Part shown: piece after piece, positions 58,347 to 62,293 of the stretch
How positions within the stretch are numbered: position 1 is the first letter of the stretch
Layout of the letters: the number at the start of each line of letters is the position of its first letter
DNA from: Candidatus Spongiisociaceae bacterium
GTDB taxonomy: Bacteria > Actinomycetota > Acidimicrobiia > Spongiisociales > Spongiisociaceae
DNA: 64,000 nucleotides
Reading direction: 5' to 3'
NCBI GenBank assembly: GCA_965243835.1
Contig: OZ251578.1
Span: forward strand, 2,464,303 to 2,528,302
Program-made: the position numbers and the translations under genes
The notes under the pieces: generated by a model
Seen by the model: only the letters and a program-made list of their open reading frames with translations
What the model was told of the DNA's origin: nothing
The model's database searches: none

Positions 58347-60101
58347 ATGAACGGCGTCGCCGCCCGCTTTGACGACTTGCGGGAGGGGGGCCGGGGCGGC
58401 TGGGAGCTGTTGGAACCGCACCAAACCTGGTGCGCCTGGGAGCCGGAGGAGGTTCCGGCGGCGATAGCGCGGGCGGAGGCCGCGGCCGCGGCGGGCCGGT
58501 GGGCGACCGGGTTCATCTCCTACGAAGCTGCCCCCGCCTTCGACGCCGCCTTGCCGGTGCGCGACCCCGTCCCCGGTTTGCCCCTGACCTGGTGGGCGGC
58601 CTTCCGGTCGGCGCGCCCCGCCCCTCTCCCGGAGGGCGGCCCCTGCCGGATGTCGGCCTGGGAGCCGGAACTGGGCTTCGCCGCTTACCGCTCCCGCATC
58701 GAGGCCGTCTCGGAACGCATCCTGGCGGGCGACACCTACCAGACCAACTTCACCATGCGGTTGCGGGGGCGGGTGGAGGGCGACCTGCGTTCCTTCTACC
58801 GCCGCCTGGCCGAGGGGCAACGGGGCGGTCACAATGCGCTGTTGCTCACCGGCCGGTGGGCGGTGGTTTCCGCCTCCCCGGAGATGTTCCTCCGCTGGGA
58901 CGGACGGCGGGTGGAAACCCGGCCTATGAAAGGCACCATGCCCCGGGGCCGCTGGGAGGGGGAGGACCGCCATCGGCGGGAGCGTCTGTTGGCCTCCGGC
59001 AAAGACCGGGCGGAGAACGTAATGGTGGTGGACCTGGTGCGCAACGATCTGGGGCGGGCCTCCCGCTTCGGGACGGTGGCGGTGGAGGAACTGTTCGGCG
59101 TGCAACGTTTGGAGACGGTGTGGCAGATGACTTCCACGGTGGCCGCCGAAACCCGTCCGGGCACGGAACTGGGCGAATTGTTGGCGGCCATGTTTCCCTG
59201 CGGGTCGGTGACCGGCGCCCCCAAACCGGCCACGATGGGACTCATCCGCTCCCTGGAAACCTCCCCCCGGGGGGTGTACTGCGGGGCGGTGGGACTGCTG
59301 GCTCCCCCCGATGCGGGGCGCCCCCGGGCCGAGTTTTCGGTGGCCATCCGCACCGCGGTGGTGAACCTGGCCGACCGCTCCGCCGAGTACGGCGCGGGAG
59401 GGGGGATCGTGCACGAGTCCACCGCCGCCGGGGAATACGCCGAGGCGCTGGCCAAAGCCCGGGTGCTGACCGTCCCCCGCCCGCCGATCACCCTGCTGGA
59501 GACCATGCGCCGGGATCCGGGAGGGGGGATTTGGCTGCGGGAGCGGCATCTGAACCGGATGCGTTCCTCCGCCCGTTACTTCGGTTTCCAACTTCCGGAG
59601 ACGGAAATCGCCGCCCGGTTGCGCGAGTTGGAGGAGGAGGGGCCGCAGGTTCCGCTCCGGGTGCGGTTGCTGGCCGCGGAAGGAGGGGGGACGTCCCTGG
59701 AATGGTCGCCGGTGGCCGCCGTCCCCGCGGTGGCGGGCTTGGCGGTGGACGACCGCCCCGTGGACCGGTCGGACCGGTTCCGCTATCACAAAACCACCCG
59801 GCGCGGCGCGTACGAGGAGGCGGCCCGCCGCCACCCCCGGGCCGATGACGTGATCCTGGTCAACGAACGGCGGGAAGCGGTGGAAACCACCACCGCCAAC
59901 CTGGCCGTCCGGCTGGACGATGAATGGCTGACCCCTCCCCTGGACGCCGGGTGCCTGCCCGGAACCTACCGGGAAGAGTTAATCGACCAAGGGGCGTTGC
60001 GCGAACACCCCCTGTTGGCGGCGGACCTGGCCGACGCCGACGAGTTGGCGGTAATCAACTCCCTCCACGGCTGGCGCCCCGCCAAACTAACCTACGACTG
60101 A
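58347..60101 (+). CDS. pabB: Bifunctional aminodeoxychorismate synthase component I / aminodeoxychorismate lyase (PabB-PabC fusion)
   Basis: Chorismate-binding domain followed by a class IV aminotransferase domain. Confidence 0.8.
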   Translation: MNGVAARFDDLREGGRGGWELLEPHQTWCAWEPEEVPAAIARAEAAAAAGRWATGFISYEAAPAFDAALPVRDPVPGLPLTWWAAFRSARPAPLPEGGPCRMSAWEPELGFAAYRSRIEAVSERILAGDTYQTNFTMRLRGRVEGDLRSFYRRLAEGQRGGHNALLLTGRWAVVSASPEMFLRWDGRRVETRPMKGTMPRGRWEGEDRHRRERLLASGKDRAENVMVVDLVRNDLGRASRFGTVAVEELFGVQRLETVWQMTSTVAAETRPGTELGELLAAMFPCGSVTGAPKPATMGLIRSLETSPRGVYCGAVGLLAPPDAGRPRAEFSVAIRTAVVNLADRSAEYGAGGGIVHESTAAGEYAEALAKARVLTVPRPPITLLETMRRDPGGGIWLRERHLNRMRSSARYFGFQLPETEIAARLRELEEEGPQVPLRVRLLAAEGGGTSLEWSPVAAVPAVAGLAVDDRPVDRSDRFRYHKTTRRGAYEEAARRHPRADDVILVNERREAVETTTANLAVRLDDEWLTPPLDAGCLPGTYREELIDQGALREHPLLAADLADADELAVINSLHGWRPAKLTYD

Positions 60102-60104
60102 CCC
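60065..60104. repeat. 40-bp direct repeat (left copy) covering the pabBC stop codon
   Basis: ccacggctggcgccccgccaaactaacctacgactgaccc is repeated at 62253-62293 with one extra g. Confidence 0.85.
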
Positions 60105-60129
60105 AAAGGCAAGACCGAAAGGGTCGTGT

Positions 60130-61953
60130 CTAGATAAACCAGATCCCCATCCATTTATCATACAACAGAACCACGAAAGATATAGACACGACAATAGCTA
60201 ATATTATCGATATTACCTGCACAGCCGTTTGGTTTATGCTATTTTCTCTCTCAGGTTCATCAGTAGGCATCTCTCGATATAATCTCAGATCTACAAGGTT
60301 TATAGTCATAAAACATATTCCAGCAGAAAATAGAAAAGCAAGCATATCAATTAATAACGCATTCCAGTCAGAGGTAACGGCAGGTCGGGTGCCCATTGTA
60401 ACCATGATAGTTACCAAGGCAAATATATAGAGTACCAGGTTTTCTGCAAGATATCTACCTCTCTCCTTACTCTTGCAAAGTAGACGAACGTCTAACTCTA
60501 ATTCATGAGCAAATTTTTTGAAATCTTTATCATCATTTTTACTTAATTTCGTAAATAAACAACCAAATTGCTGTCTCAAATTATCAATAGCCGAAGGTTT
60601 AGAAGACTGATCTAGCTTCTCCAGTAGCGGCTTTAGTTTGCCTACCGTTACAGTATCATTATTGATTTCCATCATTCGCGTCACTAACACATTCATCCGT
60701 AAAAATTGATCTTCTTCTTTATTAGTCCTTTCAACTAATCGGGATATTCTAAATGATAATATAAGTATAAATATGGTAGCAGACACGACTATTATAGAAT
60801 AATAATCGACCGATCCAACACCCCATTCCCAAGGTGAGTTATCGGCCAGCCAAGGCCATTGAATCCATTCTTCTCTAAAGTAAGTTAGCACACCTACACT
60901 CCATAAGGATACAATAAGTCCTCTAAAACCTTTCCTACCCGTACGCTCTTCTATAGCTATCAGGATACAAGTGGCAATAATAATTAGAGCCCCTATAATG
61001 AAGTAATCCCATCGTTCCAATTGAGTTAACCCGAAAGGTATTAGCCAAATTATACTCAAGAAAGGAGTTAAGTAATATATACCATTGACATCTAAGGTTT
61101 TGGTTATAAGGTTACCCTCTCTAAAACTCCATACTCCTATACCACTCGCAAAACCACCTACTATACATATTAACCAAGCTATCTCATTCGTAAACCAACT
61201 TGTTTGATTAGTCGTAAAGGTTAAACTCCAGGAAACGCCTTGAAAAATTAAGGCAATTTTCCCTATTATAACCAAAATAATAACAAAGATATTTGCTATT
61301 ATAACGCCTGAAAAAACAAACATCAACTCAATTTTATTGCGTTCCTCATCTCCTAGTTTGTTTAGTTTTTTCTCGGATTCCATCTCGTCCGTCATCTTCT
61401 CAGCCCAATCTAAAGACCTTTCCATTCTAATAGCACTTAATACTACATATACTGTAATCAACAAGAGGCCTATAATGTTAAGCGATGAACTAATATTATT
61501 ATGCGATAGATTAATATAGATCACTCCAATCAAAGCAAATACAAATAGAATCCATACTGAATTGCTCAATTTCAGATCGTCTTTTGATTTTTTCTTAGCA
61601 TAATAACGAAGTAAAACAAAATTCACAATCCAAGTTTCGCCAAGGATAGATGCTACAGCGATATCTAAATAGGCGGTGGACCAAGCGAAAAATAACCAGG
61701 CAAAACCCCCTATTATAACAAACAATAAAGCATATTTATTCCAAAACCCAGGTGGTTTATACCATTGTCTCCGTAGAAAAGAAAACAAATTTACTTTCGC
61801 GTCTATTATATCTTTTTCTACAGATTTTACAACAGTTTTTAATTTAACAGACATCACAATTGTTATACCAATCAAAATTAGTATCACGGACAGTGCTGGG
61901 TTGCTTCTGCTGTTGCTTAATCCAATCGCGAGAGGTACCAAGGAATAACCCAA
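60130..61953 (-). CDS. Polytopic membrane protein of unknown function, very AT-rich (foreign), on a 2.15 kb insertion
   Basis: 607 aa ORF with at least 10 predicted TM helices and a Lys/Glu-rich soluble segment. GC is about half the genome average. An upstream ATG at 62098 becomes in-frame if the C11 run gains one base. Confidence 0.65.
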   Translation of the reverse strand: MGYSLVPLAIGLSNSRSNPALSVILILIGITIVMSVKLKTVVKSVEKDIIDAKVNLFSFLRRQWYKPPGFWNKYALLFVIIGGFAWLFFAWSTAYLDIAVASILGETWIVNFVLLRYYAKKKSKDDLKLSNSVWILFVFALIGVIYINLSHNNISSSLNIIGLLLITVYVVLSAIRMERSLDWAEKMTDEMESEKKLNKLGDEERNKIELMFVFSGVIIANIFVIILVIIGKIALIFQGVSWSLTFTTNQTSWFTNEIAWLICIVGGFASGIGVWSFREGNLITKTLDVNGIYYLTPFLSIIWLIPFGLTQLERWDYFIIGALIIIATCILIAIEERTGRKGFRGLIVSLWSVGVLTYFREEWIQWPWLADNSPWEWGVGSVDYYSIIVVSATIFILILSFRISRLVERTNKEEDQFLRMNVLVTRMMEINNDTVTVGKLKPLLEKLDQSSKPSAIDNLRQQFGCLFTKLSKNDDKDFKKFAHELELDVRLLCKSKERGRYLAENLVLYIFALVTIMVTMGTRPAVTSDWNALLIDMLAFLFSAGICFMTINLVDLRLYREMPTDEPERENSINQTAVQVISIILAIVVSISFVVLLYDKWMGIWFI

Positions 61954-62074
61954 AGTAGCAATAACGATAAATAGGGTAGCCTTAGACTTACCTTTAGGTT
62001 CGTCTCCAGCCTTGCCGCCGCCGGATGCATCGTCGGTCGCACCGGCACTCTGCTTGCTACCTAATTGGGGGTCT

Positions 62075-62085
62075 GGGGGGGGGGG
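62075..62085 (-). repeat. Homopolymeric C11 (G11 on plus) tract between candidate ATG (62098) and the membrane-protein ORF
   Basis: Read directly. C12 would fuse MNNPTPPPPPDPQLGSKQ... in frame to the 607 aa ORF. Confidence 0.9.
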
Positions 62086-62252
62086 TGGGGTTATTCATGG
62101 CGTGTAGATTAACAGGTTAAACGGCAGGGACCGCATCTGTTGGCAGTCCGCTACCTGGGTGCGACTATTCATGTCGTGTACCTGGGTGGGGCGTTTCATG
62201 GCGTGTAGGTTAGCAGGCTAAACGGCTACCCTGTCAAATTGGGGCAGGGCAT

Positions 62253-62293
62253 CCACGGCTGGGCGCCCCGCCAAACTAACCTACGACTGACCC
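62253..62293. repeat. 40-bp direct repeat (right copy)
   Basis: Matches 60065-60104. Confidence 0.85.

Follow-up and report, generated by a model that had tools for sequence, protein, structure and literature searches.

Cis-mobilizable elements (CIMEs) are integrative elements that have kept their attachment (att) sites and have lost their integration and transfer genes (PMC5704250). Contingency genes with poly-G or poly-C tracts are described in Neisseria, Campylobacter and Bordetella, and glpK and other tracts of the Mycobacterium tuberculosis complex are systems of the same kind (PMC10334774; PMC2831843). Homopolymer-tract switching is known in Actinomycetota, the tracts of M. tuberculosis being the example (PMC10334774). 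Members of the drug/metabolite transporter (DMT) superfamily, such as EamA/YddG, SLC35, TPT and LicB, are built on a 10-helix fold. Here, we describe a locus that brings these themes together. It lies in a stretch of 64,000 nucleotides of contig OZ251578.1 from a Candidatus Spongiisociaceae bacterium (this whole stretch is called the window), where an AT-rich cassette with a single membrane protein gene separates pabBC from a DUF4143 ATPase gene. The cassette combines known kinds, namely a genomic islet, a contingency gene and a DMT transporter, and is not a new category.

Taken as a whole, the locus is best explained as a horizontally acquired single-gene islet that was inserted in trans, whose alleles are exchanged between strains and whose expression is gated by a homopolymer. 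We consider this combined account probable, though by no means certain. On this account, a single foreign gene would move and persist without element machinery of its own, at half the GC content of its host and over a long divergence. The same family of loci offers sites with and without the cassette, several places of insertion and a large set of alleles. An earlier sequence-only reading of the same DNA had reported repeats around an AT-rich insert with a membrane protein gene. The present analysis adds to it a poly-C tract, the actual start and promoter of the gene, the distribution over several sites and the sizeable DMT-fold family.

The insertion and its empty site

The target gene, pabBC, encodes a fused aminodeoxychorismate synthase and lyase (58347-60101, plus strand; Pfam Chorismate_bind, 7e-77, and Aminotran_4, 1e-36; NCBIfam pabB models). 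Its converging neighbour is an AAA_14/DUF4143 ATPase gene (62298-63599, minus strand), identified by Pfam and by the PADLOC model PDC-S01 (1.4e-82). A repeat search and junction alignment place two direct repeat copies of 40/41 nt between them. Copy 1 (60065-60104) forms the left junction, contains the pabBC stop codon (60099-60101) and serves as the functional 3' end of the gene. Copy 2 (62253-62293) forms the right junction and is a non-coding relic of the same 3' end. The copies share an identical core of 32 nt (60073-60104 and 62262-62293), beyond which 8-9 more bases match and copy 2 has one extra G; BLAST aligns the two at 41/42 positions (E 2e-17). The coordinates given by the sequence-only reading were right. 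A coincidental match is countered by the counts of the 32-mer, which occurs twice in the 64-kb window and gave 0 matches in 100 shuffles. A 24-mer taken from the repeat has no exact match among JGI metagenome contigs.

The GC content is 0.357 at 60105-61990, compared to ~0.69-0.72 in the flanks and 0.645 in the whole window. Thus, the earlier description of an AT-rich insert holds for this part but not for the final ~260 nt (61991-62252), which contain the promoter and the 5' coding end and have a GC content of 0.59.

Close homologues of the membrane protein form 22 clusters among 5.8 billion proteins, and these come only from one 3.18-Mb NCBI contig and from PANK22-1 metagenome assemblies. 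A search with pabBC returned orthologues at 81-94% identity. Occupied pabBC/DUF4143 sites with repeats are found on three related contigs, L001/L002, L007/L008 and L101, where the repeat measures 44 nt at 98%, 30 nt at 87% and 42 nt at 93%, respectively. Two other relatives lack the insert, and each has one copy of the 40-mer. The stops of pabBC and the ATPase gene are 7 nt apart in L091/L092, whose pabBC is 93% identical, and the two genes overlap by 10 nt in L089/L090 (pabBC 81%). Because these two relatives have the empty site, the segment is a true insertion with target duplication that is polymorphic among relatives. The sequence-only reading had named the search for an empty site as its test, and the test is positive; its view of a target duplication at a gene 3' end is borne out by the empty and occupied junctions.

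Measured against the empty site, the insert begins 15 nt upstream of the TTGACA promoter element and finishes ~14 nt past the stop codon of the cassette gene. Junction alignment puts the target duplication at ~68 bp, from CCACGG to GGCTGG. The repeat reported earlier is therefore real, but its length of 40 bp is too short, as the duplication reaches into the converging DUF4143 gene. The duplicated ~68 bp comprise the final 37 nt of pabBC with its stop, then a short spacer and then ~25 nt from the 3' end of the ATPase gene, and as a result both genes keep intact 3' ends. In the window, ~15 nt of the copy 1 extension have since been deleted. The left junction filler (60105-60129), delimited by aligning the junctions with empty sites and by a 19-nt repeat in L001, starts with a remnant of the duplicated DUF4143 3' end (60105-60118, aaaggcaagaccg; ~15 nt shorter than in L001) and continues with ~12 nt from the 3' flank of the cassette. 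At the right junction, repeat copy 2 runs directly into the true DUF4143 3' end.

Synonymous distances in pabBC group the window with L001 and group L007 with the empty L091, with the empty L089 as outgroup. The simplest history is a single gain in the clade, after which the L091 lineage lost the cassette or had it replaced.

Other chromosomal sites of the cassette

More distant cassette alleles (48-64% amino acid identity) are located at other loci, for four sites in total. In L003-L006, the cassette has the 3' end of argD on one side and an ECF sigma gene on the other; it is located at the 3' end of the PolX gene in L102 and L103, and beside a converging SDR-like gene in L104. At every site the cassette gene has 33-37% GC within DNA of 62-69% GC. 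Distant family members in other bacteria match their hosts, as their GC content is 0.62 in a GC-rich contig and 0.37-0.40 in AT-rich contigs; thus, a foreign composition is confined to this subfamily. The cassette stop is near the stop of a converging housekeeping gene at three of the four sites, at 4-52 nt for argD and polX and ~30 nt for pabBC.

Flanking repeats are not a constant feature of these sites. L102 has a perfect 28-nt repeat across the polX stop that recurs upstream of the cassette promoter, and its weaker extension is similar to the end of polX in L103. No significant flanking repeat was found at argD (L003, L005), in L103 or in L104, and the degenerate ~25-nt resemblance at the argD site is not significant. 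The flanks past the promoter and the stop are unrelated between sites.

The cassette gene and its protein

The cassette gene (60130-62098, minus strand) was delimited by open reading frame (ORF) calls and family alignment. The only long ORF in the insert runs from 60130 to 61953 on the minus strand and gives 607 aa from a TTG start. The reading frame is open as far as 62094, and the conserved start is an ATG at 62098-62096. Thus, the sequence-only reading was correct in finding a single membrane protein gene, but its 607 aa product is a truncated call, since the conserved ATG lies upstream and is put out of frame by a run of 11 C residues (C11). With a C tract one shorter or two longer, the product would be 655-656 aa and would include the conserved first transmembrane (TM) helix. 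Owing to the homopolymer tract, automatic gene calling systematically yields truncated versions of these genes.

A profile search found 962 relatives among 1.84 billion cluster representatives, 299 of them at E <= 1e-30, and most of the 962 are full-length at ~600 aa. The membrane protein has no match above threshold in Pfam, PADLOC or NCBIfam. One sub-threshold profile match, to a repeat-unit polymerase model, is at chance level (E 0.075), and a sequence-profile search of the PDB was uninformative. The family is uncharacterised and without a Pfam model, yet it is not an orphan.

An AlphaFold2 (AF2) model was first built from 15 sequences and was poor (pLDDT 60.8); it was replaced by a model from a 70-sequence alignment (pLDDT 88.6, pTM 0.87). 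The top PDB matches of this model are all DMT transporters: TPT (5y78), YddG (5i20), the CMP-sialic acid transporter, SLC35B1 and LicB. These Foldseek matches have a probability of 1.0 and TM-scores of 0.52-0.64 over ~355 columns, and the earlier model gave the same result. Residues ~34-411 of the model superpose on the 10-helix DMT fold, which consists of two 5-helix repeats. Distant relatives reach EamA (PF00892) at 18-21 bits against a cutoff of 28.2, and the window protein has no hit. The C-terminal part of ~240 residues is highly conserved and is composed of a long helix, a helical bundle and further TM helices, for which no informative structural match was found. As modelled, the cargo is a transporter-like membrane protein with a DMT/EamA-type 10-helix fold and a C-terminal extension, and its former assignment to an unknown family no longer holds. 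Unlike the matched DMT structures, it has the extra ~240 residues, and it lacks an above-threshold Pfam or NCBIfam match. The family thus adds ~1000 clusters with a DMT fold and a conserved additional C-terminal module.

A role in phage-host conflict is a reasonable guess, given that the adjoining gene is a PDC-S01 candidate and that defence or defence-candidate genes occupy most of the other AT-rich islets of the window. The cassette protein itself matches no PADLOC defence model, unlike PDC-S01 next to it and most of those islets. Hypervariable surface loops, which would hint at a phage receptor, find no support, as the length-variable segments are K/E-rich, cytoplasmic-looking loops in an alignment judged by eye.

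The homopolymer tract

The C11 homopolymer of the cassette gene (62075-62085, minus strand; G11 on the plus strand) is located 13 nt after the start codon and, from strain comparison, is a candidate slipped-strand switch. It puts the main ATG out of frame, and as assembled, the frame from this ATG stops after 13 codons. In L101, which is near-identical to the window (DUF4143 synonymous divergence, dS, of 0.018), the tract is C12. Homologous tracts are C12 in L003/4, C11 in L005/6, C12 in L102 and C14 in L103. L007 has a start-proximal C7 that is in frame, and its frame is broken by a mid-gene G14. In L104 the frame is broken at a T7/A6 run, and L001 has no tract and an intact ORF. In total, a single frameshift interrupts each of eight alleles out of nine; it falls in a homopolymer every time, and a change of 1-2 nt in that run restores an ORF of 655-727 aa from the conserved ATG. 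The mid-gene tract lies in a cytoplasmic-looking loop (L007 7938-7951, G14-T-G; L008 2215-2230, G16). The same kind of frameshift is present in independent short-read assemblies.

This pattern suggests that the cassette gene is a phase-variable contingency gene that would switch reversibly by slipped-strand mispairing. Like the contingency genes described above, it has a long G/C run near the 5' end of its coding sequence that differs in length between close strains, an otherwise intact ORF and a membrane product, and the window also holds a DNA methylase gene (HmaB) that is interrupted in the same way. The cassette tracts, at 11-14 nt, are longer than those of mycobacteria, which are typically 7-9 nt. 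Other differences from known contingency genes are that the cassette is a compositionally foreign mobile islet, that its host is uncultured and environmental, and that ON variants were not observed. It would represent an apparent ON/OFF contingency gene in an environmental, probably actinobacterial lineage in which phase variation is little documented.

Decay of the cargo had been suggested before, and the frameshift could be read as the first disabling mutation of a pseudogene in junk foreign DNA, or as a sequencing error. In keeping with this, the frameshift is present in the window and in most relatives, and public gene callers give truncated products only. We regard this reading as very improbable. 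The ratio of nonsynonymous to synonymous divergence (dN/dS) between the window and L001 is 0.02-0.35 over ~620 codons, and with otherwise intact ORFs, these values show that the alleles are not decaying pseudogenes. Moreover, each interrupted allele has one lesion, always in a homopolymer, and this lesion type recurs in the independent short-read assemblies. The promoter, the start codon and the C-terminal half are strongly conserved between sites. The notion of a decayed cargo is contradicted by this purifying selection and by the restriction of the damage to a single homopolymer frameshift.

Several points weigh against a DNA-level switch. All seven alleles with a G/C tract are OFF in the assembled consensus, for which the random expectation is (2/3)^7 = 0.06. 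With none of these tract alleles in the ON state, slippage or frameshifting could be the real route of expression. Slippage of RNA polymerase, or a +1/-1 shift of the ribosome on the C run with its proline codons, would then give a constitutive low level of protein with no phase variation in the DNA. Such a mechanism accommodates seven out-of-frame alleles whose ORFs are nevertheless intact and under purifying selection, and the mRNA, which is probably leaderless, would begin 10-35 nt away from the tract. It is improbable in our judgment, since the corrections needed differ (-1 in five alleles and +1 in two) and no single programmed shift therefore fits all. In addition, the tract of L007 is a mid-gene poly-G and that of L104 is T7/A6, and tract length differs between near-identical strains, as slippage in the DNA predicts. 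A uniform programmed +1 frameshift was dropped, as L101 and L102 need a correction in the other direction.

The methylase gene bears on the same question from the side of assembly quality. A second 11-nt G/C run at 43086-43096, the sole other run of at least 9 nt in the window, splits a gene for a DUF1156/HmaB-type DNA adenine methylase into two minus-strand ORFs (43037-43456 and 40729-43056). The two halves match HmaB in PADLOC at 1e-252 and 1e-40, the break falls inside the conserved DPF-x-GGG motif, and G12 or G9 restores the frame. Either this methylase is phase-variable, or long G/C runs are miscounted in the assembly; the latter would count against the switch in the cassette as well, although lesions of this kind are also seen in the short-read contigs.

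Split genes are also present in two distant clusters of the family, P0149 and P0170, for example as pieces of 465 aa and 197 aa on one 2.62-Mb NCBI contig. Gene interruption in the family may reach beyond the AT-rich subfamily.

Promoter and start

The expression region (62095-62237, minus strand) was read from the sequence; its pattern is conserved in related loci, and its function is predicted. The distal promoter has a TTGACA element (62237-62232), a 19-nt spacer and a TAACCT element (62212-62207), and an ATG (62199-62197) follows after 7 nt. A proximal -10-like element, TAATCT (62111-62106), lies 7 nt before the main ATG. The pattern TTGACA-17..19-TANNNT-7/8-ATG is kept in seven related loci at all four sites. 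No Shine-Dalgarno sequence precedes the cassette start, and a scan with the E. coli consensus did not pick up the conserved promoter. Given the spacing of 7-8 nt between TANNNT and ATG, the cassette mRNA is expected to be leaderless.

The -10/ATG module is present twice in the window as a tandem duplication of ~101 nt (copies 62083-62125 and 62184-62226, 86% identical). This duplication is found in L101 and not in L001 or L007. It gives rise to an upstream ORF of 34 codons, shared with L101 only, whose TGA overlaps the main ATG (ATGA). The ATG of this ORF (62199-62197) is the one that an mRNA from the complete promoter (62237-62207) would carry as a leaderless start. This upstream ORF could couple or block translation of the main gene.

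Age and exchange of cassette alleles

Between the window and L001, nucleotide identity is 94-99% in the flanks, 86-95% in the 3' half of the cassette and 65-78% in its 5' half. Synonymous divergence follows the same order: 0.107 in pabBC, 0.25-0.45 in the C-terminal half of the cassette gene and ~1.0 in its codons 61-300. By this comparison, the age of the cassette alleles far exceeds that of their chromosomal backbones, and the gene is a mosaic. The greater age of the alleles argues that segments have been swapped between lineages by recombination.

Low-GC polytopic membrane genes are known to persist in high-GC genomes, as is the case for wzx and wzy of O-antigen clusters. Like these, the cassette is an AT-rich, rare-codon, divergent polytopic membrane gene with allelic replacement between strains. 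In contrast to wzx/wzy, it stands alone outside of a polysaccharide locus, and its one match to a repeat-unit polymerase is at chance level.

The one intact allele, that of L001, contains a 30-nt tandem duplication inside its coding region (7044-7103, 87% identical). This is one more sign that local slippage and duplication are frequent in the cassettes.

Origin of the insertion

No integrase or transposase was found in the insert or among the 43 window ORFs scanned against Pfam, and the single ORF of the insert has no PADLOC recombinase match. The sequence-only reading had noted the missing recombinase in the insert, and this now extends to the scanned ORFs of the window. Terminal inverted repeats are absent from the insert ends, and relic mobile-element genes are absent from the nine loci. 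There are no tRNA genes in the window and no Rfam families in 59800-64000. Searches by tblastn and a contig scan found no cassette relatives on phage, plasmid or viral contigs.

The cassette is therefore hard to place among transposons and insertion sequences (IS), as it has neither a transposase nor inverted repeats at its ends, and its duplication of ~68 bp compares with 2-15 bp for IS. It also differs from integron gene cassettes: it has its own conserved promoter, lacks an attC-like inverted repeat and is solitary, and no integrase is encoded by the window ORFs scanned.

A closer likeness is to CIMEs and other integrase-less islets flanked by att sites, with which the cassette shares repeats of the target 3' end, a precise empty site, a small cargo and the lack of integration and transfer genes. 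Its repeats of 40/41 nt (~68 bp against the empty site) cross the pabBC stop, and its insert has one ORF. One could thus propose that an integrative and conjugative element (ICE) of actinomycetes (AICE), or a prophage with a tyrosine integrase, entered the 3' end of pabBC and lost all but its cargo. Its phage- or element-borne site (attP) would have carried the ~68 bp of target identity, and the repeats would be attL and attR, still usable in trans by a related integrase. The duplicated target 3' end, the single copy at the precise empty site, the second case at polX and the general outline of a CIME all fit this proposal. Identity segments of 40-110 bp between att sites are usual for actinomycete integrative elements, which fits as well. 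We nonetheless consider it unlikely. Descent from an ICE or an integrative and mobilizable element (IME) left no relic genes in the nine loci and no conserved att arms, and the insert is composed of promoter and ORF only. The cassette occupies four targets with different or no repeats, and independent decay would have had to leave the same minimal unit at all four. Furthermore, the sites lack a common core motif, the flanks beyond the promoter and stop are not conserved, no integrase is found in the window ORFs scanned, and viral and plasmid collections contain no relatives. Of the site-specific integration proposed earlier, the target duplication at a gene 3' end stands; an origin by a recombinase is not established, given that conserved ends, inverted repeats and relic genes are missing and the repeats differ or are absent elsewhere.

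A one-off illegitimate insertion is the somewhat stronger competitor, and we rate it as possible but clearly the less probable account. Here, the DNA would have been captured either during the repair of a staggered double-strand break, with Ku/LigD end joining and fill-in as one possible route, or in a pre-existing tandem duplication of the junction between the two genes. The repeats would be a repair scar, and the cassette would be immobile and spread only by homologous recombination of its flanks. The location of cassettes at gene 3' ends would reflect survivorship, because insertions between converging genes are harmless. Repeats that vary or are absent, the lack of a target motif and of element ends, and allele exchange independent of the flanks all agree with such an event. 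The region is also prone to tandem duplication (101 nt in the window, 30 nt in L001 and 27 nt by TRF). Set against this, four independent captures would have had to pick up the same tightly bounded unit, and no genome was seen with a duplicated junction and no insert. To our knowledge, end joining in bacteria has not been documented to produce target duplications of 28-68 bp.

The account that we prefer is an islet acquired horizontally and inserted in trans. The segment at ~60105-62252, made up of promoter, ORF and ~14 nt after the stop, would have entered between the tail-to-tail pabBC and DUF4143 ATPase genes in the ancestor of a small, uncultured, high-GC clade that is probably related to Acidimicrobiia, and would have duplicated ~68 bp of target. 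As no recombinase is present in cis, the first insertion at each site would have been made in trans, either by a recombinase of the host or of a co-resident element or through staggered-break repair. Alleles would then be exchanged, most simply by homologous recombination through the flanks and the conserved gene ends, and loss, possibly with re-entry, may proceed via the direct repeats as a Campbell-type circle. The gene would be expressed from the TTGACA/TANNNT promoter as a leaderless mRNA, as its spacing suggests. The C11 tract would leave the window gene OFF, and in silico, the loss of one C or the gain of two restores the 655-aa protein.

Among mechanisms of entry, recombination of a circular cassette with one junction copy, by RecA or by an integrase in trans, is ranked first; precise loss is accounted for as well. 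Second comes capture at a staggered break or in a pre-existing tandem duplication, with later spread by way of flank homology. A CIME is ranked least likely because the same minimal remnant would be needed at four sites.

Certain observations count against this account. No obvious target motif is shared across the four sites, no conserved terminal sequences are found across sites, and the repeat varies in length from ~68 nt to 28 nt to undetectable (argD, L103 and L104). The GC content at third codon positions (GC3) of the cassette is ~0.33 in both old alleles, compared to ~0.85 in the host; this persistence points either to selection for AT-richness or to an unsampled AT-rich reservoir. Finally, the leaderless mRNA is deduced from spacing only.

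A bolder proposal is that the cassette represents a new minimal, recombinase-less mobile unit. A trans-acting or host mechanism that makes 28-68 bp duplications would repeatedly place it exactly where converging housekeeping genes end (pabBC, argD and polX). It would be kept AT-rich, for example through xenogeneic silencing, and would carry a phase-variable DMT-type protein with a role in phage-host or other conflict. We think this doubtful at present. If the long target duplications are the true mark of a specific mechanism and not repair scars, that mechanism would be new.

Other features of the window

Other low-GC islets are located at 1130-1774, 4828-6027, 6126-7100, 18650-19258 and 21171-22445. 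Their genes encode NYN/HEC-09 (3e-41), SoFic (7.5e-51), DUF4268/PDC-S11 (3e-82), a type II N6/N4 methylase and a 424-aa ORF without hits. No direct repeats flank these other AT-rich islets of the window.

Two further tandem repeats are present. A 23-nt unit (ATTACAGCACCATACGCACACCC) is repeated 7.5 times with 94% matches at 63626-63798, directly ahead of the DUF4143 ATPase gene, which starts at 63599. Between an alanine racemase gene and the NYN islet, a 17-nt unit (ACAGCCCCGGAAGTTTC) stands in two perfect tandem copies at 923-956.

The window also encodes two Fic-domain proteins (4828-6027 and 31949-32767). For LigA and PabBC, the named relatives at 62-66% identity are MAGs of Acidimicrobiia, and in a scan of genome contigs with pabBC the best match reached 53% identity, to Acidimicrobiia/Actinomycetota MAGs; the source is thus probably an uncultured actinobacterium similar to Acidimicrobiia. 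A DUF222/HNH endonuclease gene (39063-40415) is of the actinobacterial 13E12-repeat type and therefore supports an actinobacterial origin of the DNA.

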